Made by a program: the position numbers and the translations under genes
Assembly (NCBI GenBank): GCA_024698075.1
Contig: JAILRP010000082.1
Span: 26,422-90,421 of the forward strand
Direction of reading: 5' to 3'
From: Lachnospiraceae bacterium
GTDB taxonomy: Bacteria > Bacillota > Clostridia > Lachnospirales > Lachnospiraceae
DNA: 64,000 nt
Notes under the pieces: model-generated
The model's database searches: none
Seen by the model: only the letters and a program-made list of their open reading frames with translations
Told to the model about the DNA's origin: nothing
Shown here: in pieces, positions 4,398-13,820 of the stretch
Numbering within the stretch: the stretch's first letter is position 1
How the letters are laid out: each line of letters begins with the position of its first letter

Positions 4398-5129
4398 ATG
4401 ACCATATATCTGGCAATCTGCGACAACAACATAGCCGACCGCAAACAGCTCGAGCGCCTGCTGTCCCGCGAAAAGGACAGGCGCCTTCGGGAAAACTATG
4501 ACGTCCTCTATATCGATTCATTCGGGAGCGAGGAAGCTCTTATGGCCACCCCCGTAAAATATGACATATTTTTCGTAGATGTGACCGAAGGTGCCTCAAA
4601 CGGGATCGAGATAGCCAAAAAGCTCAGGCAGCGCGGTATCAGCGCTCCCATTGTGCTCTGCCAGTCAACGATAAACTATTCTTCATATGTAAATGCCCCC
4701 GAAGACATCATATATATCGAAAAGCCCATCAACGCCGGGCAGGTGAGCCACCTTACGGACGTTGCATTCGAATGGTCAAAGCGCAAGGCCCCGCTCATCG
4801 AGATAAGATGTCAGAAAGACACCCGTTTCATCAGACATGATGAGCTTGTAAAGGCAACGCCCCTCGATAAGTTCCTGACCAGGATCAGCCTGTCTGACGG
4901 CGAATGCGTCGATATGACAGAGTCCCTTGCATCGCTCGAAGTACAGTGCATGTCCTTTGGATGTTTTGTCAGATGCGGGAGGGACCTCATTAACGTTTAC
5001 CACATCGAAGGAACATCCGGGCGCGGCTTCCGCCTTTCCAACGGTGATATAGTCACTTATTCATTCACCCAGAAGAATGCCATCATCAAAGCCATGGCGG
5101 ACAGCATCGGTACATGCAGGGAACATTAG
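4398..5129 (+). CDS. Orphan response-regulator-like protein with a C-terminal LytTR DNA-binding domain
   Basis: 243 aa. The N-terminal receiver-like fold (IYLAICDNN...IFFVDV...) is followed by a LytTR-like C-terminal half (IEIRCQKDTRFIRHDELV...RCGRDLINVYHI). No histidine kinase gene lies adjacent. Confidence 0.75.
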   Translation: MTIYLAICDNNIADRKQLERLLSREKDRRLRENYDVLYIDSFGSEEALMATPVKYDIFFVDVTEGASNGIEIAKKLRQRGISAPIVLCQSTINYSSYVNAPEDIIYIEKPINAGQVSHLTDVAFEWSKRKAPLIEIRCQKDTRFIRHDELVKATPLDKFLTRISLSDGECVDMTESLASLEVQCMSFGCFVRCGRDLINVYHIEGTSGRGFRLSNGDIVTYSFTQKNAIIKAMADSIGTCREH

Positions 5130-6410
5130 CGCCGCACTCTCCTCCGTTTTTTCATATTTCGCAACTGCCTTCCTTATCAGCTCCATGAGCTCTTCCATTT
5201 CCGTTCTGATACGGCGGAGCCGCTCACACACTCTTTCAAGCGCATGTTCTGCGTATATCCTCGTGCTTATCGTATATGCTATATCCCGGCGGATATTGTC
5301 CACCCGGTCGGCCGCACTTATGATGATCGGTACCTGCTCGGACATGAGCATGGCTGCCGCCCGGCATCTGTCGGCGTCAAGATACATGCTTCCCGTGGAT
5401 GCAAAACCGACGGCGTCTGATGCTGCCGCAGTCAGTTTCCGAACGAATTCCGCCGTGAGCATCCCCATAACCGGGGCAGCTGTATCCGATATATCCGCGT
5501 CGGGCGTTGTCAGCGCAAGAGATATGGCAAGGCCCGCCGCCCTGCTCATAACACCTTTATCCTCTGATTTCACGGGATCGAGCAGCCGGCACATGGCATC
5601 CGTAAGCCTCCCGAGGCCCTTTGAGACCGCTCCCTGGCTTCTTACGCTCGTAAAGCTCCCATCCGCACCGAAACTGTTCTCGGTAAGCAGGGTGACCGGT
5701 GAATGCGCATACGCAGGACCCGTGTCATTGGCAACGTATATGCATGTTCCCGCTATCCCCGTAAGAAGGATGTTCACAAAGTCATTGTATGCGCTTATCG
5801 ATATGATCTTAGGCGAGGCGGCGGCAACCGCGTCGGCATTTTCCCGTATGAACTCATCGCCGAAGCCCTGTCCGTCATAGGAAACGCAGCGGCTGATCCT
5901 GTCTGCGCTCTTTACCGTGACATACTGGGCAAGGTTCCCTCCCTTTGAATGTCCCGTCACCTCTATGTCTGAATATGCGCTGCATTCGCTTTCGATAAAA
6001 TCATCCGCAAGGGCCTGCAGTCTCGTGTCTTCGGCAAATGCCCCCTCAAAGTTGTCGGTCCATGCTTCCTTTGTCCCTCCGGTCCCCCGGAATACGACCA
6101 CCGGCTTCTCATCCCTGTCATCCGTGTAGCAGATGGCCCTTATGTCTTTCTCTTCAAGGCATCTGGCGGCCGAAAGCCTGCCGAATTCCGGATTTTCGCG
6201 GATCCGCTCATCCATCTTCTCAAATACCGCCTTCACTTCGGCGGTGCTCATCCCTCCGCCTGCGGCGGCGCCATAAACGCTCTCTTCGGTAAATCCTCCG
6301 CCGTCGGCCCTGAAAGAGCCGATTATGTCTTCAATCGGCCTTTCTGACAGGCATGCCGGTATATATATGAAATTTGATAAGAGAAGTAGTTCCTGTTCTG
6401 TATATGCCAC
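5061..6410 (-). CDS. DUF2974/Mbeg1-like alpha/beta-hydrolase (lipase or esterase fold) with a C-terminal helical domain; candidate type VII secreted effector
   Basis: 449 aa. It has the N-terminal LLLLSNFIYIP signature, VVVFRGTGG, and the nucleophile elbow VTGHSKGGNLAQYV (GxSxG). The last ~150 aa are predicted helical and end ...ELIRKAVAKYEKTEES (YxxxE). No Sec-type signal peptide is visible. It is the last gene of the WXG100/EssC operon, 2 nt after the preceding gene. Confidence 0.75.
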   Translation of the reverse strand: MAYTEQELLLLSNFIYIPACLSERPIEDIIGSFRADGGGFTEESVYGAAAGGGMSTAEVKAVFEKMDERIRENPEFGRLSAARCLEEKDIRAICYTDDRDEKPVVVFRGTGGTKEAWTDNFEGAFAEDTRLQALADDFIESECSAYSDIEVTGHSKGGNLAQYVTVKSADRISRCVSYDGQGFGDEFIRENADAVAAASPKIISISAYNDFVNILLTGIAGTCIYVANDTGPAYAHSPVTLLTENSFGADGSFTSVRSQGAVSKGLGRLTDAMCRLLDPVKSEDKGVMSRAAGLAISLALTTPDADISDTAAPVMGMLTAEFVRKLTAAASDAVGFASTGSMYLDADRCRAAAMLMSEQVPIIISAADRVDNIRRDIAYTISTRIYAEHALERVCERLRRIRTEMEELMELIRKAVAKYEKTEESAALMFPACTDAVRHGFDDGILLGE

Positions 6411-6412
6411 TC

Positions 6413-7699
6413 TTACTCTATTCCCACTACATAGGTGTAAGCGCCGGCGGTGAGCCTGTCGCCGTCGGAGAGCTTCTTTTCCGAAACCCTTACTCCGTTG
6501 ACTCTTGTTCCGTTTGCAGACTTTAAGTCTCTGACAAAAACGCTTCCGTCATCTTCATACAGCTCGAAGTGTCTCCTTGAAAGCGCATCGTCGTCTATAA
6601 CCACATCGCAGTCTCCTCTGCCTACCGTCATCGGATAAGAAAGGGCTGCGGTATATTTTCCGTCAGATGCTCTTCCGCCTGTCAGCGTCACCACCCTTCC
6701 GTTCTCATACAGAAGCCGCGTGGATCCCGCGTCACCATCATCAAGCACTGTGGTGCCCGCTATGTCAAAATCACCGAAGAATTCCTCCTCACGCTCCTGC
6801 ACTCTTACAATCCCACTGCGCTTCTTCTTCATGACCGCAAAGCCTCCGAGGATGCCGGCAGTAAGTCCGGCGAGGACAAGTGCCGCGGAGAGGATGAGCG
6901 CACCGGTTCCGGCAAAGAAATGCGGTGTCCTCTCATATTCGTATACGACTCCCTCCTCTTCAAAAGGCCCTTCCATATATTCTTCCGGACCGATCTCATC
7001 GTACTCGCCGTATTCTTCTTCGTAGGTCTGCCCTTCATCTTCGCCGGCATATCCGTCCGTTTCTTCGTATGCTTCGTATCCCTCATCCCCGGCGGGCTCA
7101 TCCTCTTCCTCATACCGGCTCCACCAGGCCCTGCTGTATTCATCCATCGCCGAAAAGACCATTTCGGTAAGCTGTCTGTCTACTTCCGCATCCGAGCCTT
7201 CGAACTCAGATTCAAACAGCCGTCCTCCGCTTGTCACCGCAACCGCCGACAGACCCTTCTTTGCCGCTGCATTATCCTCCTGATCTAGCATCACCACATA
7301 GACCGGGTACCCGCTCTTTTCGAGCAGATAATACAGCTCTTCCTTCTCATGTGAGATCATTCCGCCCTCGAGACCGTCCGTGAACACTACTATGTCCCTG
7401 CAGGCAAAATCGGATGACCTCCACCGAAGTATCACTTCACAGAGCGTATCTCCAAGGTTAGAATCCTTCGGTCCGAACTCAATGCCGTCAAGGGTGCACA
7501 TAAGATCATTCGCATCCCCCGTGAAGCTTTCTTCTTCCGATACGTCATGCTCGTATGTGCTGAGGCAGAATGCCCTGTCCTCCGGAAGATGGTAGAACAT
7601 ATATTTAAGCGTTGCCTTTGCAATCTTTTGGCTGACCGGGCCAAGCGTCGCATCATTGTCGAGAAGGACCAGGGTCTGTCCGCATACCCGCATGCTCAA
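6413..7699 (-). CDS. Membrane protein: N-terminal vWA-like domain, Glu/Tyr-rich acidic linker, one TM helix, C-terminal FHA domain
   Basis: 428 aa. The vWA-like elements are LVLLDNDATLG (DxDxT in the MIDAS position) and IVVFTDG. The acidic low-complexity stretch is YEEEDEPAGDEGYEAYEETDGYAGEDEGQTYEEEYGEYDE. The TM helix is GALILSAALVLAGLTAGILGGFAV followed by MKKKR. The FHA signature is VGRGDCDVVIDD..LSRRHFEL...SANGTRVNG. The FHA call is firm. The vWA call is tentative. Confidence 0.7.
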   Translation of the reverse strand: MSMRVCGQTLVLLDNDATLGPVSQKIAKATLKYMFYHLPEDRAFCLSTYEHDVSEEESFTGDANDLMCTLDGIEFGPKDSNLGDTLCEVILRWRSSDFACRDIVVFTDGLEGGMISHEKEELYYLLEKSGYPVYVVMLDQEDNAAAKKGLSAVAVTSGGRLFESEFEGSDAEVDRQLTEMVFSAMDEYSRAWWSRYEEEDEPAGDEGYEAYEETDGYAGEDEGQTYEEEYGEYDEIGPEEYMEGPFEEEGVVYEYERTPHFFAGTGALILSAALVLAGLTAGILGGFAVMKKKRSGIVRVQEREEEFFGDFDIAGTTVLDDGDAGSTRLLYENGRVVTLTGGRASDGKYTAALSYPMTVGRGDCDVVIDDDALSRRHFELYEDDGSVFVRDLKSANGTRVNGVRVSEKKLSDGDRLTAGAYTYVVGIE

Positions 7700-8010
7700 C
7701 TTATCGCAGCCGCGGAAAGGCTGCCTGCAAGACTGCCACTCTCCGATTCGGCCTGAATGTATTCGTTAGCCATCTCGGTCAGGTCCTCCGAGTGTTTTCT
7801 GATGATCGCATAAAGCCTGTTCATATCGGATGAAAGTGACGAGAACCTGTTTGCGAATCCGGTCGCCGCCTCACCCTGCCATACTGGCTTGAAGCTTTCC
7901 ACGATGGATATCATCTCCTCCGTCAGGTTTCTTATCACCGTTTCGGTATTCATAAACTCCGACGCGGCCTCGATCAGTTTTTCCGGCGTTACTTTGAGCA
8001 TTTTTTCCAT
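7696..8010 (-). CDS. WXG100 (EsxA-like) protein
   Basis: 104 aa, helical, with the central motif VWQGEAATGF and the C-terminal EYIQAE (YxxxE). It overlaps the downstream gene by 4 nt. Confidence 0.85.
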   Translation of the reverse strand: MEKMLKVTPEKLIEAASEFMNTETVIRNLTEEMISIVESFKPVWQGEAATGFANRFSSLSSDMNRLYAIIRKHSEDLTEMANEYIQAESESGSLAGSLSAAAIS

Positions 8011-8297
8011 TACATGACCCTCCCTGTATTCCTGCGCTCCGCCATGTCATATCTGTCGGCGATATAGCCTATCACCTCCAGATAGCGGCTAATGACTTCA
8101 ATGAAAGAATCCATCTGTCCTGCATTTCTCATGAACTGCTCGTGAAAGCTGTCGTTTGCGGCACCTTCCCACATGGATCTGAGCGAAAGTTCCTTTGAAC
8201 AGAGTATATCCTTTTCCTGCCTGAACTTCTGAAGAAGAGCTGTCAGCTCATCCTTCTTGCCCCTCAGCCTCACGCTGTCGACTTGATAAAATGACAT
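8010..8297 (-). CDS. WXG100-like small helical protein
   Basis: 95 aa with the central MWEGAANDSF and the C-terminal RYDMAE (YxxxE). It overlaps the next gene by 1 nt. Confidence 0.75.
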   Translation of the reverse strand: MSFYQVDSVRLRGKKDELTALLQKFRQEKDILCSKELSLRSMWEGAANDSFHEQFMRNAGQMDSFIEVISRYLEVIGYIADRYDMAERRNTGRVM

Positions 8298-8344
8298 TTG
8301 TTATTATTCTCCTTTCTTGTTAACATAACTACCGACCAGCTCGG

Positions 8345-8650
8345 TCAAAAGCAGACCGATGCGGCCGCTTTTTCAGCCTTGTATACAATGTCGGCAGTCG
8401 CTCTGATATTTCTGGCGATACGCATAAGATCGTCTGCAGTACTGTATATTTCGGCCGTCGTCCTTTTTCCTGCCAGCTCTATTGACCCACCTGCATCACC
8501 CCTCCAGCTATTCTTCAGAACGAGGAGCGCCGACTCGACTCCGCTGTTCGCGGCACGGCTCAGGCTGTCCGCCAGACGTTCGAGCTCCTGGGCCTGGTTT
8601 ATGGCTCTTGAAAAATCCATTTCTATCTCTCTTTTGCTTTTTTCTGTCAT
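8345..8650 (-). CDS. WXG100-like small helical protein
   Basis: 101 aa with the central SWRGDAGG. The RBS and coding pattern are consistent with operon membership. Confidence 0.7.
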   Translation of the reverse strand: MTEKSKREIEMDFSRAINQAQELERLADSLSRAANSGVESALLVLKNSWRGDAGGSIELAGKRTTAEIYSTADDLMRIARNIRATADIVYKAEKAAASVCF

Positions 8651-8943
8651 AGTCCGTATTCCTTTATCATCATCATAACTTCCCTTTCACATCCTCCGTA
8701 CAGCGCATACGCTTCCCTGGCAGCGCGGACCGCCTCTCCTATCCTGGCAGTATATATGCCTGCGGAAGCCATATCGCTGTCAATGGCGGACATGAAAGCC
8801 TCGTTTGCATCGCCGTCCCAGAAGATGTCCAGATACGCGGCATATCCGGCTATCCTTCCAACTTCTTCATGCAGTTTCATATAAAGCTGCGTGAGCCGTT
8901 CAAGCTTTTCCCAAAGCGGAACATACTCAATACTCATCCTCAA
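8647..8943 (-). CDS. WXG100-like small helical protein
   Basis: 98 aa with the central FWDGDANEAF and the C-terminal LYGGCE (YxxxE). It overlaps the flanking genes by 4 and about 11-17 nt. Confidence 0.7.
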   Translation of the reverse strand: MRMSIEYVPLWEKLERLTQLYMKLHEEVGRIAGYAAYLDIFWDGDANEAFMSAIDSDMASAGIYTARIGEAVRAAREAYALYGGCEREVMMMIKEYGL

Positions 8944-9160
8944 TTCCGATCATCACCCCGCTTCCGTCACAGAGCCCGGCATCAGCCAGACTCATCTCAT
9001 CAGGCAGCTCTCCGCGGCCCGAAAACATTATGAAACAGTTGTTTTTTAATGAGAAAAAACTTCTCACAAATTTCTTAAGATCCCCTACGCAGATCGATTC
9101 CGAGACCCTCATCCACAGCCTCCTGTCCTCTGCCGGAATGATCAATTCTATAGATATCAT
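8927..9160 (-). CDS. YukD/EsaB-like ubiquitin-fold (beta-grasp) protein
   Basis: 77 aa. Its size, its position directly after the EssC-like gene, and the C-terminal pattern LPDEMSLADAGLCDGSGVMI match the YukD family. Confidence 0.7.
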   Translation of the reverse strand: MISIELIIPAEDRRLWMRVSESICVGDLKKFVRSFFSLKNNCFIMFSGRGELPDEMSLADAGLCDGSGVMIGIEDEY

Positions 9161-9179
9161 ATGTTACTAAACCTCTGTT

Positions 9180-12100
9180 TTACTGGATTTGTGAGTTATC
9201 CACATCAAATGCCACCGGTATCTTTATGTTCCCGAAAAACTGTTTTTCATCGAATTTCATAACTGTTGCAATCCCTCTTGCATGTGACTTTTGCATGTCT
9301 GAAAACGGCATGTATGAAAAGTCAAAATTCCTGTTCTCATCGATGCTTCCCCCGAAGTGTATTACGTACGGATGAACGGCTGCGGCATCATATATCTTCC
9401 TCCCGAAATGACGTGAGCCGGCATCATTTTCCATCACCGCCATCACGAGGGGGCCGTGTCCGTCCCACATGGGACTGTTCTCAAAAAAACCTGCCATCTC
9501 ATCTTCTTCTGCAGTGCTCCTGCTGACAGAGTAAAAATCATCTAGCAGCTCCGAAAAGCTTCCTACGGACACTATGCCTCCGTCTTCCATATCACGGCAG
9601 GCCGCGATAAAGCTCAGGTATGACTTTGCGTCCACATATTTTCTGCCGATAAGTGCCGCGGTCACGGAGACATTGAACAGGAACGTGTGCCTTCCCTTAT
9701 ATGGCTTGCCGCCGATCAGTATGCACCTGACAGAGCCAAGCGGCAGCCCAAACACCCTTCCGGTCAGGATCTCATAGCCCGCAGGGAAGATGTCAGTCTC
9801 GGCAGATGCTTCAAGCAGGTGCTCAAGAGTGGGATCATCCGGAAGGTGCGGGTATTTGGGGGCGTCCGTTCCTCCGGGTTCCGGCTCTTTGCCGTCTCTT
9901 ACTGCCTGAAACTCGAGCACTGAACCTGACAGCATTCCCACTCCGCGTCCCGCATATCCTGGGATCTCCGGAATCTCAGCCGCACTTACCCTGAAGAAAG
10001 AGGCTTCCCGGTATATGTCGCTTCCGGCGAGGAACAGACAGGTATCAAACAGCCTCTCCTCCCTTTCCGGTACCGGAGCGGGGGCCGAGGCCAACACCGT
10101 GATGCCGACGCTGCGTCCCAGCATGAGGATGCGCGTTATGTACTCGGCTGAAGAAGGCGCGGCATTTCTGATCCCGTTAAGATCATCCAGGACAAGCACT
10201 ATTCCGGTGCCGCCTCCGCTCTTTCTCCGCCTTGTGAGCTCATCCGACACAAAGATCGCCATGCGAAGTATGTCGGATACCGCATCATCCGTTATATATC
10301 CCCCGCACCAGCTGCACTTTTCCAGCTTTTTGAGCTTTCCTCCGCCAAAGTCGATGATGTATACGGCATATCTTCCCTTAATCCTTCTGAGCAGCGTATT
10401 TATGAGCTCGCTCTTGCCGCTGCCGCTCCGTCCGGTGATAAGGACATTTCCCATCTCTTCGGGAGAATAAAACGCCCGGACGTATCTCTGCGACGCAGGA
10501 TCGTCATATATGGCATAGGCTTCGCTGTCTGAAATCTCCTGCGGGAGCGGAGGAAGAAACAGGCTGCTGCCGTGCCGGATCCCGGCAGTTTCCGCCGCAT
10601 CCCCTATCGCCCTCATCACGAGGTCAAACCATGTCCCTGCGTTATCTCCCGGAGCGTATTCACCCCCTATCTCCTGTTCAAACAGAAGATCCTCATATAC
10701 CCGCGGCCTCTCACCAGCATTACCGGCAACAGACATCGCATAACCGCTCTGAAATTCTGCAGTGCCGGTTGAATTTCCGGCAAGGATGCACCGGCCGCAT
10801 TCTTTTATCGAGGCTGCATCCGGCCGGCCTATGATATCGACCGAATCCGACCTCTCAACGAGCCTTAAGGCTATCCTGAACCCGGAATTGCTTCTTATCC
10901 TTTCATCCACAACACCCGCAGGCTTCTGTGTGGCAAGTATCAGATGCATTCCCAGGCTTCTTCCTATCTGCGAAACGCTGATCAGGCTGTCCATAAGATC
11001 CGGTTCTTCCCTTCGAAGCTCCGCAAACTCATCAACTATTATCAGGATGTGGGGGAGCGGATCGGGGGCCGCCTTGGCATCATACAGCCTCGTATAATCG
11101 TTTATGCTGTTGACGCCTGATGCTGCAAAGATCTTCTGTCTGCGCAGGTTTTCGCTCTTCAGCGCTTTCATTGCCCTGCGTGCATCGATCCTCGAAAGAT
11201 TGGAGATGCTTCCCACAAGATGTGGAAGTCCCTCAAACAGATTTGACATTCCGCCGCCCTTGTAATCTACGAGAAAAAAGGCCAGCTTGTCCGGAGGATA
11301 CCTTGAGGCTAATGACAGGATTATGGTTGTCAGAAGCTCGCTCTTGCCGCTTCCGGTCGTTCCCGCTATAAGGCCGTGGGGGCCGTCTGCCTTCTCATGA
11401 ATGTCAAGGATGACTTTTGCCCCTCCCGGACCAAGCCCTATAGGGGCATATAATGAAGCAGTCGTGTCACTTTCCCTGTATGCGGAAAGGACAGATCCGG
11501 ACAGGTTCCGCGCATCTGCTCCCGGCGGAAGGCCGAGCAGACGTCCGAAGGGGACTTTTTCGGGGATCCCGCCTTCAGTTTCAGACCCTGCCCTTGCAAG
11601 CTGTGAGGCAAACGAAAAGCACATTTCCGGACTGAGCATGTCACACCTGATATCATTCTCCGGCCCGTTTACCGAACATGCAGTCCCGGCAGGGATGCCT
11701 TCCGACCTGGCTATTGCAAGTATCACGGCCCGGCCCTGTGCGGCATGAGCGTATGCCTCCGAAAGATCTCCTGTCACGATCAGGGCCTGTGTGGCGTCAT
11801 CCGCCGGTACATGGGGCAGAAGAGACGTCCACATATAATACCTCATGAGCTCCCCTGCAAGGCTTAAGGCTATCTTAAAGCTATGGGGCGGATATTTGAC
11901 CGCAGCCTGCAGAATGAAGGCCGCAAGTGCCTGCCTGTCATCTTCCGTGTCAAGCCAGAACACCGACAGGCTTCCCTTTGCAAGCCTTACGAGCACCGGG
12001 CAGTCCGGTATGCTCTCATACCTGCGCCCAAGCTCGGCGGGAAGATCTTTAAGGGAATCATCCACTCCGGCGAATCTTTCCTTTGGGACGCTGATCCTGA

Positions 12101-12950
12101 CCGGATTTGGTATCCTTCCGATCCCGGCTCTTACCTCTACGGCCGTATCACCTGCCGGCGGTGTGGCCCATATCATGCATCCTCCGTTCTCCTTAAGATA
12201 TCCGCCGACCTGAGGATATATGCGGGCAAGAGCCTCCGACGCCTCCTTTGTCCTTGCCTTCACGGTCTCCTCACAGGCTTCAAGGTATGATATGTATGTG
12301 CTCCTCCTGCGCCTTTCCTCGGCCTTCTGTCTCCTTGTCCGTCCCATGACATTGACTGCGGCCCAGATCGCCGCAAAGACCGAAGAGAGGACTGCCACAG
12401 TCCTTCCCGCTCCGAGCAGTATCGGGACTGCCATCGTAAGCGCCGGACCTGCTGAGAGCAGTACCGAAGGCTTCTCAGGCACCCTTCTCGGAGGCGGTGC
12501 GTCTATCTCAACCGACGGAGGGGGCTCATACAGGGCCTGGGTCATGGGGATGCGGATATTCTCTGCAGGCTCGCTCCCTCCCGTCCAGATGATGCTGTGC
12601 TCTCCGATCCTTATGCGGTCTCCTACCCTGATGTGGCACCGGCTTCCTTTATTCACTTTTTCTCCTCTTATCACGGCCCCGTTCGTGCCCAGTACTTCAA
12701 CTGATGCCACATCATGCCTGATGCTGCGGATACAAAGGTGAACCCTTGATATGAACGGGTCGGTAAGATGAAGGTCACTGTTTTGGTCCCTCCCGACCAG
12801 AAGAGGTGACCTCTCTCCGGAAAGGTAAAAAACACCCACTGTATTCTCCGGCTGATATAGGATTAACGATAATCTGGAATCATTGCGATGCGTCCAACGC
12901 AAGATGAGATCTAGAAAAAAGAATTCCGTTTGTGGAACGAATGATATCAC
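9180..12950 (-). CDS. essC: EssC/YukB-like FtsK/SpoIIIE-family type VII secretion ATPase with an N-terminal FHA domain
   Basis: 1256 aa with a GTG start. The FHA signature is VGRDQNSDL...ISRVHLCI...GTNGAVIRG. The TM region is LSAGPALTMAVPILLGAG..VLSSVFAAIWAAV. P-loop 1 is GLIAGTTGSGKSELL with Walker B ILIIVDEFAEL. P-loop 2 is ITGRSGSGKSELINTLL with VLVLDDLNG. The third domain has a degenerate Walker A (IGGKPYKGRHT). Confidence 0.88.
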   Translation of the reverse strand: MISFVPQTEFFFLDLILRWTHRNDSRLSLILYQPENTVGVFYLSGERSPLLVGRDQNSDLHLTDPFISRVHLCIRSIRHDVASVEVLGTNGAVIRGEKVNKGSRCHIRVGDRIRIGEHSIIWTGGSEPAENIRIPMTQALYEPPPSVEIDAPPPRRVPEKPSVLLSAGPALTMAVPILLGAGRTVAVLSSVFAAIWAAVNVMGRTRRQKAEERRRRSTYISYLEACEETVKARTKEASEALARIYPQVGGYLKENGGCMIWATPPAGDTAVEVRAGIGRIPNPVRISVPKERFAGVDDSLKDLPAELGRRYESIPDCPVLVRLAKGSLSVFWLDTEDDRQALAAFILQAAVKYPPHSFKIALSLAGELMRYYMWTSLLPHVPADDATQALIVTGDLSEAYAHAAQGRAVILAIARSEGIPAGTACSVNGPENDIRCDMLSPEMCFSFASQLARAGSETEGGIPEKVPFGRLLGLPPGADARNLSGSVLSAYRESDTTASLYAPIGLGPGGAKVILDIHEKADGPHGLIAGTTGSGKSELLTTIILSLASRYPPDKLAFFLVDYKGGGMSNLFEGLPHLVGSISNLSRIDARRAMKALKSENLRRQKIFAASGVNSINDYTRLYDAKAAPDPLPHILIIVDEFAELRREEPDLMDSLISVSQIGRSLGMHLILATQKPAGVVDERIRSNSGFRIALRLVERSDSVDIIGRPDAASIKECGRCILAGNSTGTAEFQSGYAMSVAGNAGERPRVYEDLLFEQEIGGEYAPGDNAGTWFDLVMRAIGDAAETAGIRHGSSLFLPPLPQEISDSEAYAIYDDPASQRYVRAFYSPEEMGNVLITGRSGSGKSELINTLLRRIKGRYAVYIIDFGGGKLKKLEKCSWCGGYITDDAVSDILRMAIFVSDELTRRRKSGGGTGIVLVLDDLNGIRNAAPSSAEYITRILMLGRSVGITVLASAPAPVPEREERLFDTCLFLAGSDIYREASFFRVSAAEIPEIPGYAGRGVGMLSGSVLEFQAVRDGKEPEPGGTDAPKYPHLPDDPTLEHLLEASAETDIFPAGYEILTGRVFGLPLGSVRCILIGGKPYKGRHTFLFNVSVTAALIGRKYVDAKSYLSFIAACRDMEDGGIVSVGSFSELLDDFYSVSRSTAEEDEMAGFFENSPMWDGHGPLVMAVMENDAGSRHFGRKIYDAAAVHPYVIHFGGSIDENRNFDFSYMPFSDMQKSHARGIATVMKFDEKQFFGNIKIPVAFDVDNSQIQ

Positions 12951-12995
12951 ACCGGATCATAACCTGCAATATCCGAATAATCCACAAACGGAATT
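12922..12995 (-). repeat. Perfect 15-bp inverted repeat bracketing the essC-like start codon
   Basis: AATTCCGTTTGTGGA at 12922-12936 and its exact reverse complement TCCACAAACGGAATT at 12981-12995. The GTG start at 12950 and its upstream region fall in the 44-nt loop. The 3' arm covers codons 5-10. Confidence 0.85.
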
Positions 12996-13023
12996 TTGAA
13001 ATTTCTGTAAATATGAACAAAGA

Positions 13024-13569
13024 TCAGGCAACTACCGAACTTCTTATCTCGTCCGATCTTTCCTTACCGAGAAGCAGTGTGATGAGTTCACACGCAAAGT
13101 CAACCGCCGTACCGAGACCCCTTGACGTAGTGATGTTCCCGTCGGTCACAACGGGTTCCGTAACGGGCATTGCTCCTTCAAGGAGATCCTCCATCCCGGG
13201 ATAGCACGTCGCGCGCTTTCCCTTAAGAAGGCCCCGGGCGCCGAGTATCCTTGCGGGAGCGGCACATATCGCGGCTATCCTCTTCCCCTTAAGGTTCTGT
13301 TTGTCAATAATGTCCATGAGCCTTCCGCACTCAAGCAGGTTGACGGTCCCCGGCATCCCTCCAGGAAGCACGACCACATCGGCCCCTTCGGTATCAGCCT
13401 CATCTATCGTGATATCGGCACATACGGGTATGCCCCGCGCCCCTGTGACAACCTTCCTGTCAGGGTATATCGATACCGTCTCAGCCTCCACTTTGGCCCT
13501 TCTTAAAAGGTCTATCGGTGTAAGAGCTTCTATCTCCTCAAATCCGTCTGCAAGAAATACGTATACCAT
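13024..13569 (-). CDS. DJ-1/PfpI family protein
   Basis: About 181 aa counted from the MVYVFLADGFEE start, which has the RBS GGAGGTGACT 0-nt-spaced upstream. It has the conserved AAICAAP nucleophile-elbow Cys context. Confidence 0.85.
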   Translation of the reverse strand: MVYVFLADGFEEIEALTPIDLLRRAKVEAETVSIYPDRKVVTGARGIPVCADITIDEADTEGADVVVLPGGMPGTVNLLECGRLMDIIDKQNLKGKRIAAICAAPARILGARGLLKGKRATCYPGMEDLLEGAMPVTEPVVTDGNITTSRGLGTAVDFACELITLLLGKERSDEIRSSVVA

Positions 13570-13820
13570 AGTCACCTCCGCTGTTTCCAAGTGTCTGCGA
13601 TCACAATCCGTAAAAATATTCTATCACAAACAGCCGGCCATTTCAGGCCGATTTTTACAGATAACACATGTTCTTATATCAAAAGGAGCTCCCATATATC
13701 TTAAGGGGTTTTAAAACAGACAGGAAAACTGTATTATGAAATAACGGACTGCCCACAGCCGGCTGATGCCGGACGGGGCATTCCTGCTGAATTATAATTA
13801 TAATATCACGGAGGGCAGAT

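Follow-up and report, generated by a model that had tools for sequence, protein, structure and literature searches.

An eight-gene operon of uncultured Lachnospiraceae likely encodes an undescribed type VII secretion subtype with few membrane components and a predicted hydrolase cargo

The variants T7SSc to T7SSj of type VII secretion systems (T7SS) were defined from RefSeq by EssC phylogeny together with gene neighbourhood (Garrett, Higginson & Palmer 2024; PMC11217815). Here we describe an operon of eight genes whose component set matches none of these variants. It lies on the minus strand of a 64-kb stretch of DNA (64,000 nucleotides, here called the window) from contig JAILRP010000082.1 of a metagenome-assembled genome (MAG) of an uncultured rumen Lachnospiraceae bacterium, assembly GCA_024698075.1; its proteins carry GenBank accessions of the form MCR56881xx and locus tags beginning K6G58_. 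A first-pass annotation of this DNA had suggested a minimal or alternative T7SS architecture and had left it undecided whether such an architecture was already described. The suggestion is supported. As to description, alternative T7SS architectures are already a known class, and this operon is one more variant and not the first. A literature search in which subscription journals were poorly covered returned no description of the arrangement, and no genus of Lachnospiraceae is named in the accessible part of the Garrett et al. supplement, which is weak evidence. The operon is best regarded as a T7SS subtype not described before, belonging to Lachnospiraceae that are uncultured, in which the membrane set is unusually small and a reverse-orientation hydrolase is the hard-wired cargo. 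We consider it likely that the eight-gene module is a chromosomally inherited T7SS of a subtype outside the published T7SSa-j, working broadly by the mechanism proposed below.

The described system closest in spirit is T7SSf, to which T7SSe and T7SSj are related, all three possessing a TsxJ component (PMC11217815). Like the present operon, T7SSf is clostridial and combines a WXG100 protein (TsfA), a YukD-like protein (TsfB) and an FHA-bearing TsfC; its TsfJ protein consists of an N-terminal DUF6382 domain, which defines TsxJ, two transmembrane (TM) helices and, C-terminally, an FHA domain (PMC11217815). In T7SSb, EssC has two FHA domains, neither of which retains the phosphothreonine-binding residues, and T7SSc is composed of TscC, which has no FHA domain, the kinase TscD, the soluble cytoplasmic vWA protein TscE, the phosphatase TscF and the EspG-like protein TscG (PMC11217815). 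T7SSg is a precedent for a very small component set, one extra component having been proposed, and differs from the operon described here in that this component is a beta-propeller (PMC11217815). With regard to substrates, TslA and TslM are lipases secreted by the S. aureus T7SSb in which the lipase domain is N-terminal and a helical, LXG-like domain, bound by small helical partners, is C-terminal (PMC10730906, PMC13560087); TslA is neutralized by the lipoprotein TilA (PMC10730906), and reverse lipases have been reported at T7SSe and T7SSg loci (PMC11217815). Finally, in the Esr threat-sensing pathway of Actinomycetales, a vWA protein, a kinase and an FHA protein control Esx (bioRxiv 2026, PMC13622651).

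The operon itself comprises eight co-directional open reading frames (ORFs) at window positions 5061-12950, all confirmed at their stated coordinates. The tight packing reported by the first-pass annotation, with spacings from -17 to +47 nucleotides (nt), is confirmed: the successive intergenic spacings are +19, -17, -4, +47, -1, +2 and +2 nt, and there is no spare coding space. All eight ORFs are real genes and not chance occurrences, as judged by protein-level conservation and by the same order at 22 other loci. The gene for the ATPase is called tsxC here and that for the 77-amino-acid (aa) ubiquitin-like protein tsxB. In order of transcription, the genes are as follows.

9180..12950, minus strand: tsxC, an EssC/EccC-like membrane ATPase of 1256 aa with an FHA domain, two TM helices, a DUF-like domain, ATPase domains D1 and D2 and a degenerate D3
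8927..9160, minus strand: tsxB, a ubiquitin-like protein of 77 aa in the EsaB/YukD role (family profile and orthologue)
8647..8943, minus strand: a WXG100-like protein of 98 aa with FWDGDAN and a C-terminal YxxxE (weak WXG100 match, E = 0.061)
8345..8650, minus strand: a WXG100-like protein of 101 aa with SWRGDA and a C-terminal VYxAEK (TIGR03930, 2.9e-5)
8010..8297, minus strand: a WXG100 protein of 95 aa with MWEGAAN and RYDxAE, a YxxxE (TIGR03930, 5.7e-9; Pfam WXG100, 3.7e-5)
7696..8010, minus strand: a WXG100 protein of 104 aa with VWQGEAA and EYxxAE, a YxxxE (Pfam WXG100, 43.3 bits against a cutoff of 27.3; TIGR03930, 47.1 bits against a cutoff of 44.85)
6413..7693, minus strand: a membrane protein of 426 aa with a vWA domain, an acidic linker, a single TM helix, a TxxL linker and an FHA domain (AlphaFold2 model, Foldseek, Pfam)
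5061..6410, minus strand: a Mbeg1-like (DUF2974) alpha/beta-hydrolase of 449 aa with a C-terminal helical domain (PF11187, 4e-15)

The window and all 22 other loci that were examined have these eight genes in one and the same order. When one genome per GTDB species was scanned with the family alignment, 15 loci were obtained, and the module was present in order at every one of them (15/15; at one, L015, the contig ends inside the vWA-FHA gene). These 15 loci come from MAGs of uncultured Lachnospiraceae, the hosts being cattle, sheep, goat, buffalo or reindeer. By way of homologues of TsxC, of the hydrolase and of the FHA protein, the module was reached also at L001, L017/L018, L019, L021, L022, L023 and L027. 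Contig look-ups by exact sequence, made with a WXG protein of the window and with the protein representative P0001, returned no record. All named sources of family loci are uncultured Lachnospiraceae MAGs, mostly from ruminants. Between loci, TsxC identity drops to about 30% (30-37% in distant members) and the flanking genes differ. The first-pass annotation had asked for a neighbourhood census of homologues of the FHA protein as a test of co-occurrence with essC-like genes; the tsxC-bearing module was present at all 22 other loci examined here. When a profile of the vWA-TM-FHA protein was searched against 5.8 billion proteins, full-length matches continued down to 246 bits and were followed by FHA-only matches at 89 bits or less, every named match being a Lachnospiraceae MAG. 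In a crude neighbour-joining tree, nine module-bearing TsxC proteins stood apart from T7SSb EssC and from the proteins of the Agathobacter rectalis and Agathobaculum loci. The nearest TsxC relative without the module is that of the Agathobaculum locus L020.

That the operon encodes a T7SS at all is indicated first of all by TsxC, which matches Pfam FtsK_SpoIIIE (2.3e-41) and FHA (2.7e-10). Among NCBIfam models it scores 463 bits with EssC, 297 with EccCa and 72 with FtsK, the EssC score being below the 778-bit cutoff of that equivalog, and its best PDB matches are B. subtilis YukB (263 bits), T. curvata EccC (209), EccC5 (153) and FtsK (82). Because the ATPase scores far higher with EssC/EccC than with FtsK, one small protein passes the WXG100 cutoffs, three sub-threshold proteins carry WxG and the 77-aa protein is ubiquitin/YukD-like, we regard the assignment to T7SS as very likely. 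It has to be weighed against the reading that the ATPase is a DNA translocase or a conjugation-type FtsK/SpoIIIE protein and that the operon does not serve protein secretion, given that the FtsK_SpoIIIE family includes DNA pumps and that weak P-loop matches to TraB, TrwB and VirB4 were obtained. This reading was rejected on the scores and on the PDB ranking. It also does not sit well with the EccC-type N-terminal region and three tandem ATPase domains of TsxC, with the strict linkage to WXG100 and YukD-like genes, or with a window in which no relaxase, integrase or other mobile-element genes were found and GC content is uniform, and we consider it extremely improbable.

The following features of TsxC were located.

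12603..12800, minus strand: single N-terminal FHA domain, aa 51-116 (Pfam; translation checked)
12342..12470, minus strand: two TM helices, spanning about aa 161-203 (from hydropathy and the alignment of the family)
11340..11363, minus strand: Walker A motif of D1, GTTGSGKS (alignment, translation)
10410-10433, minus strand: Walker A motif of D2, GRSGSGKS (alignment, translation)
9684-9713, minus strand: degenerate, conserved P-loop of D3, GGKPYKGRHT (alignment, translation)

The protein had initially been described as an FHA/TM ATPase of the FtsK-SpoIIIE type with three P-loops. The FHA, TM and ATPase parts of that description hold, and the three P-loops are two canonical ones and one degenerate one: D1 and D2 have canonical Walker A and Walker B motifs. 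Only 50 residues precede the FHA domain, in which the phosphothreonine-binding residues GR, S-x-x-H (SRxH in the window) and NG are conserved across 15 aligned TsxC sequences of the family.

In one subclade, tsxC is split after D1 into ORFs of 737 and 493 aa (L003, 4806-7019 and 7006-8487; also L005 and L007), which overlap by 14 nt, the second having its own GAGGAGG ribosome-binding site and ATG. Since the split is common to three independent MAGs, it is not an assembly error, and it resembles the EccCa/EccCb split of mycobacterial ESX-1. Among the better matches of TsxC there were also giant EssC-like proteins of 2300-3075 aa with six to eight separately matched FtsK-type stretches (P0251, P0267-P0269, P0274, P0281, P0282 and P0286), which look like double-length or fused T7SS ATPases.

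With T7SSb, the operon has in common an EssC-type ATPase, with YukB as the best solved structure, a protein like EsaB/YukD, WXG100 proteins that carry an export motif at the C terminus and the predicted use of helical-domain toxin substrates with small helical partners. It is thus conceivable that this is an ordinary T7SSb, minimal only in appearance, whose EssA, EssB and EsaA genes are unlinked or outside the window. Such a reading is helped by the position of YukB as the closest solved structure to TsxC and by the extent of the inspected DNA, which for all component searches was the 64-kb window of a 93.6-kb contig plus 8-10 kb on each side of each related locus. Within this DNA, the first-pass statement that EssA, EssB and EsaA are not recognizable in the operon or its visible flanks was borne out by Pfam, NCBIfam, tblastn and hhalign. 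Pfam and NCBIfam searches of the products gave no match to EssA, to EssB/YukC or to EsaA/YueB, and among the Ecc families only EccC was matched. As references we used two annotated canonical T7SSb loci, from the Bacillus mycoides plasmid pBMX_1 and from Listeria (L025 and L026). In tblastn searches of the 64-kb window and 22 family loci, their EssA, EssB and EsaA proteins produced nothing above noise (the best match, at E = 0.02, was to the wrong strand), and the positive controls from the same loci did match, EssC at about 1e-130 and EsxA at about 1e-7. The possibility, raised at the outset, that the FHA membrane protein is a divergent EssB was rejected, as its family profile aligns with EssB only over the TM helix, with an hhalign probability of 1%. 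The core T7SSb genes are contiguous in L025 and L026, whereas 23 loci, the window included, keep their eight genes while the flanks change and have EssA, EssB or EsaA nearby in no case. TsxC, moreover, has one FHA domain that retains its phosphothreonine-binding residues, in contrast to the two FHA domains of T7SSb EssC that lack them, and it forms a clade separate from T7SSb EssC, with about 24% identity over aligned columns. An ordinary T7SSb with displaced genes therefore appears quite unlikely to us, and it is rather probable that the module is complete without Ess- or Ecc-type partners.

TsxB had been described as a YukD/EsaB-like beta-grasp protein. By itself it has no Pfam match. A profile built from 16 orthologues matches ISG15, ubiquilin and ubiquitin at 5e-10 and aligns over its full length with the positional orthologue at L017 (hhalign, E = 7.9e-5), which in turn passes the Pfam YukD cutoff (29.2 bits; cutoff, 27 bits), and by way of this profile and this orthologue the description proved correct. 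Compared directly with B. mycoides EsaB, the profile did not reach significance (E = 0.076). At every locus with the junction on the contig, tsxB is directly downstream of tsxC.

The four proteins of about 100 aa each contain the central W-x-G string quoted for them in the first-pass annotation, and W-x-G is invariant among the orthologues of all four. The WXG100 cutoffs are passed only by the 104-aa protein, the other three remaining below threshold; B. mycoides EsxA matches orthologues of the 104-aa protein at 1e-7, and by these sequence matches it is the best EsxA-like candidate. Among 16 aligned orthologues of the 98-aa protein, DIFW-x-G and Y...E are invariant, as are the motifs of the 95-aa protein among its orthologues, and the L017 orthologue of the 101-aa protein matches WXG100 at 2.5e-4. 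An invariant C-terminal YxxxE is found in three of the four proteins (not in the 101-aa protein) and in the hydrolase. The four proteins probably form two heterodimer pairs.

Besides the ATPase, the FHA protein is the only membrane protein of the operon, as had been stated at first reading. The ORF of 428 aa (6413-7699) is likely to start with the ATG at its third codon, giving 426 aa, a choice preferred because a 100%-identical database entry has 426 aa; the TTG at 7699 is an alternative start. Apart from this difference in length, the initial description as a vWA-like/TM/FHA membrane protein is upheld by the AlphaFold2 model, by Foldseek and by Pfam VWA matches of orthologues. The model (mean predicted local distance difference test [pLDDT] score, 77.5) consists of a vWA domain at residues 1-195 (pLDDT, about 90), a disordered and very acidic linker, a TM helix at 263-292 and an FHA domain at 333-425. 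The features on the DNA are these.

7109..7693, minus strand: vWA domain, with the motif DNDAT, resembling a metal ion-dependent adhesion site (MIDAS), in the window clade
6818..6907, minus strand: single TM helix, followed by KKKR (model, hydropathy, alignment)
6710..6721, minus strand: T-R-L-L motif, a candidate phosphothreonine (pTxxL) site, located just upstream of the FHA fold
6419..6697, minus strand: C-terminal FHA domain with canonical GR, SRRH and NG (Pfam FHA, 4.4e-18; residues invariant in the family)

In Foldseek searches, the N-terminal domain was assigned to the vWA fold (ITIH1, BatB, TEM8 and TFIIH p44, with TM-scores to the target of 0.6-0.7) and the C-terminal domain to phosphothreonine-binding FHA domains (Rv0020c, GarA and OdhI). 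Seven of the 29 family members match vWA models; deeper lineages have a canonical DxSxS MIDAS, and orthologues there pass the Pfam VWA cutoff (40.4 bits; cutoff, 23.8 bits). A tblastn search of a plasmid collection with the vWA domain gave no match. A single TM helix is present in all nine lineages compared, with positive charge on its C-terminal side in eight of the nine. T325 and L328 are invariant in the 29 family members, and T-x-x-L is kept in 9/9 divergent lineages, as TRLL in eight and as TLIL in one, which makes TRLL a candidate phosphothreonine site. Judged by their conserved residues, both FHA domains of the system look competent to bind phosphothreonine.

The layout of this protein, an N-terminal domain, TM segment, linker and C-terminal FHA domain in a second, separate FHA protein, is shared with T7SSe, T7SSf and T7SSj; phosphothreonine regulation is suspected there as it is here, and reverse lipases occur at some of the variant loci. 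The operon could accordingly be read as a reduced derivative of T7SSf (or of T7SSe or T7SSj), in which TsxJ is represented by the vWA-TM-FHA protein, an orthologue whose N-terminal domain was swapped or has diverged beyond recognition, and TsxF and TsfV have been lost. T7SSf is, as noted, clostridial with FHA domains in TsfC, and the motifs TTVL and ETELL upstream of the FHA domain in the TsxJ fragments of Fig. S4 of Garrett et al. resemble the TTVL and TRLL found here; we treat this resemblance as a lead only and not as evidence of orthology. The N-terminal domain, on the other hand, is vWA here and DUF6382 in TsfJ: DUF6382 is matched by 0/29 family members even at E <= 1, vWA models by the 7/29 already mentioned, and one TM helix is predicted instead of two. 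By hhalign, only the generic FHA domain aligns with the TsfJ and TseJ fragments, at 20-23% identity. Neither a PP2C phosphatase (TsfF/TsxF) nor the TadZ-like AAA+ protein TsfV is encoded in the window operon, in its flanks or in the family loci listed with Pfam matches, a TsxD kinase and TsxH/I/K are also missing compared with T7SSe/f/j, there are four WXG100-like genes against the single TsfA, and the hydrolase is a fixed member of the operon. Descent by reduction from T7SSf, T7SSe or T7SSj is in our opinion unlikely.

Systems in which vWA modules are found near a T7SS include T7SSc, whose TscE, compared by description only, has the same kinds of Foldseek neighbours as the vWA domain here. 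The present system differs in that the vWA domain is part of a protein that also contains a TM helix and an FHA domain, that TsxC carries an FHA domain and that kinase, phosphatase and EspG-like genes are absent. In the Esr pathway, too, vWA and FHA modules are encoded beside a T7SS, a regulatory threonine lies in a disordered region of the FHA output protein and post-translational control of EccC has been proposed, although the vWA, MoxR, kinase, phosphatase and FHA proteins are separate there, whereas vWA and FHA are fused here and a MoxR or kinase gene is not linked.

GarA and OdhI are self-binding phospho-switch proteins. That these are the closest FHA structures, with their switch role known in general, and that vWA, FHA and threonine phosphorylation control Esx in Actinomycetales is what one would expect if the vWA-TM-FHA protein were a signalling or regulatory module outside the export machine; the same reading would make the hydrolase a machine-associated enzyme comparable to MycP of T7SSa, in line with its conservation, its single copy and the lack of an adjacent immunity gene in most lineages. 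However, no MoxR, kinase or phosphatase gene is linked at any locus. The vWA-TM-FHA protein is membrane anchored and is the sole membrane protein besides TsxC in a strict operon, which makes a structural role at least as likely, and the hydrolase has a helical tail of about 190 aa with the YxxxE typical of T7SS substrates and, in two lineages, a lipoprotein gene beside its own. We give a purely signalling function a modest chance, well short of likely.

In the mechanism that we propose for a separate T7SS subtype, TsxC hexamers would serve as the motor and as the translocon or channel. The vWA-TM-FHA protein would hold the place taken by EssB in T7SSb or by TsxJ in T7SSe/f/j, acting as scaffold or regulator and as the membrane partner of TsxC. 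An unlinked Ser/Thr kinase could phosphorylate the conserved TxxL threonines in the juxtamembrane linker, and binding of FHA to phosphothreonine, between or within TsxC and the vWA-TM-FHA protein, would then gate assembly or activity. Such phospho-regulated assembly is a tentative part of the model, to which we would give somewhat less than an even chance. The 95-aa and 104-aa proteins would act as a pair like EsxA/EsxB, and the 98-aa and 101-aa proteins may be Lap/Tla-like partners of the helical tail of the hydrolase, forming with it a composite export signal. The hydrolase would be exported and would act on lipids or esters outside the cell. In its most complete form, the proposal is an unnamed T7SS subtype that would take the letter following T7SSj and occur only in uncultured Lachnospiraceae of the gut and rumen, with a membrane apparatus of TsxC and the vWA-TM-FHA protein only, a MIDAS-type vWA domain possibly outside the cell, a TxxL phospho-switch read by two FHA domains and one hard-wired lipase-like effector; for all of these elements together, we hold the proposal to be possible and would not call it probable.

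The last gene of the operon had been annotated as an alpha/beta-hydrolase without a signal peptide, and this was substantiated by the PF11187 match and by an invariant nucleophile elbow; no signal peptide was found in the protein. Three of its features are listed here.

5937..5954, minus strand: nucleophile elbow GHSKGG with the catalytic Ser155 (invariant in 30 homologues)
5085..5630, minus strand: C-terminal helical (LXG-like) domain of about 190 aa (model, alignment)
5142-5156, minus strand: YEKTE, the invariant YxxxE of the last helix (alignment, translation)

In the AlphaFold2 model, an alpha/beta-hydrolase domain at residues 1-250 (pLDDT above 90) is followed by five long helices at 261-442. 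The top Foldseek matches are the type VI secretion system (T6SS) lipase effector 9cys_A and feruloyl esterase A, and weak Lipase_3 matches were also seen; from its sequence, the enzyme is predicted to be catalytically intact. In the tail motif, Y419 is invariant and E423 near-invariant. The helical domain gives a weak profile match (E = 0.013) to the T. curvata Esx-family protein 4lws, which we take to be EsxB. The hydrolase gene is always the last in the operon. In the window, the protein has a C-terminal tail of about 15 aa that is missing from most orthologues.

Like TslA and TslM, the hydrolase combines an N-terminal lipase-like domain with a C-terminal helical domain, has no signal peptide and is encoded with small WXG100-like partners. 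The likeness is one of domain layout. The catalytic domain here is of another family, Mbeg1/DUF2974; further differences are that the hydrolase is conserved and single-copy, that most lineages have no adjacent immunity gene and that YxxxE is on the substrate itself. Given the absence of a signal peptide, the invariant elbow, the long helical tail with YxxxE, the T6SS-lipase-like fold, the fixed last position, the adjacent lipoprotein gene in two lineages and the reverse lipases at T7SSe and T7SSg loci, we think with fair confidence that the hydrolase is cargo of the system, a reverse-orientation lipase-like substrate like TslA and TslM, and not a bystander enzyme. In a rumen organism, its role could also be nutritional, as an esterase or lipase that is secreted, and not that of a toxin.

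The lipoprotein gene is found directly upstream of the hydrolase gene, after the vWA-FHA gene, in two lineages only (L017 and L018, both at 9292-10008, and L023 at 9888-10571). The L017/L018 and L023 products have the lipoboxes LLGGC and GVGGC, respectively, and a weak DUF5037 match; the window has no homologue. Because TilA, the lipoprotein that confers immunity to TslA, is a precedent (PMC10730906), this gene is a plausible candidate for an immunity gene.

Several points weigh against the interpretation given above. Outside the searched window and flanks, the genomes could contain genes for a kinase and phosphatase or genes like those for EssA, EssB and EsaA. The tree was made without bootstraps and without reference sequences of T7SSc-j. 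By the positive-inside rule, the FHA domain of the 426-aa protein would be cytoplasmic and 260 aa of vWA domain and acidic linker would be outside the cell, yet the protein has no signal peptide. The 101-aa protein has YxxE and not YxxxE. How the WXG proteins pair, and that they bind the tail of the hydrolase, is a proposal, and export of the WXG proteins and the hydrolase is a prediction, all hosts being uncultured. Lastly, a hydrolase that is conserved, single-copy and not polymorphic is atypical of an antibacterial toxin, as is the lack of a candidate immunity gene at the locus in the window clade and in most other lineages.

The identity of the Bacillota T7SS channel and the accessory proteins that are truly needed are open questions, and a naturally minimal system helps to define the essential core. 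If the proposal is true, TsxC with its two TM helices and the vWA-TM-FHA protein would amount to three TM helices per protomer pair, which would be the simplest T7SS known. With one single-pass partner beside its ATPase, ubiquitin-like protein and WXG proteins, the system is also a small target for reconstitution and cryo-electron microscopy. In addition, the link between T7SS and FHA/phosphothreonine control is extended, the RefSeq-based catalogue of variants (c-j) is seen to be incomplete for uncultured gut and rumen Clostridia, and the fixed presence of a lipase-like cargo suggests that the system has a specific ecological role in the rumen, be it antagonism or the hydrolysis of esters and lipids.

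The operon is flanked by housekeeping genes, as identified by eye from the translations: argJ, an acetyltransferase gene, argG and a DUF1294 gene on one side, and genes for DJ-1, argC, malQ, a cation diffusion facilitator (CDF) transporter, lon, clpX, clpP and tig on the other. GC content is even along the window. A mobile-element origin was rejected in view of these flanks, the uniform GC content and the syntenic chromosomal position. Scans for tRNA genes and Rfam families found nothing near the operon. The DJ-1 gene named as the upstream neighbour in the first-pass annotation was recovered in Pfam/NCBIfam domain searches. The convergent downstream gene, which had been called a LytTR regulator, is indeed present and convergent (window 4398-5129, plus strand; 243 aa), but the LytTR label did not stand: Pfam, NCBIfam and PDB sequence searches gave no LytTR match, and only a weak receiver-domain match was obtained. 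Its 3' end and that of the hydrolase gene overlap by 69 nt (5061-5129). Synteny of this gene holds within the close clade. Its position in deeper lineages is occupied by a DUF5721 gene, followed by the DUF1294 gene and argG.

A scan for promoters and terminators was uninformative: counts were close to those expected from shuffled sequence, and the interval from DJ-1 to tsxC showed no clear promoter. In a consensus-level scan of region 12951-13646, the 73-nt gap between these two genes had no promoter-like site, and one was seen upstream of DJ-1 at 13646-13618 (minus strand), so DJ-1 and the operon might be co-transcribed in the window clade. In two divergent lineages, the genes directly upstream of tsxC encode an OmpR-type response regulator and a HisKA sensor kinase (L017 and L018, 1-1553; L027, 1538-3506), a pair that may provide transcriptional control and is absent from the window clade.

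Two T7SS loci without the module deserve mention. At the Agathobaculum locus L020, there are five to six WXG genes together with a LytTR gene and genes for a PQQ-type kinase, a small FHA protein, a DUF4176 protein and SLH proteins. In Agathobacter rectalis (Lachnospiraceae; L024, a 251-kb plasmid record), a 227-aa FHA protein is encoded directly upstream of an FHA-less EssC, and Imm59 genes are present. Both loci are likewise without annotated EssA, EssB and EsaA, and they suggest that there is more uncatalogued T7SS diversity.

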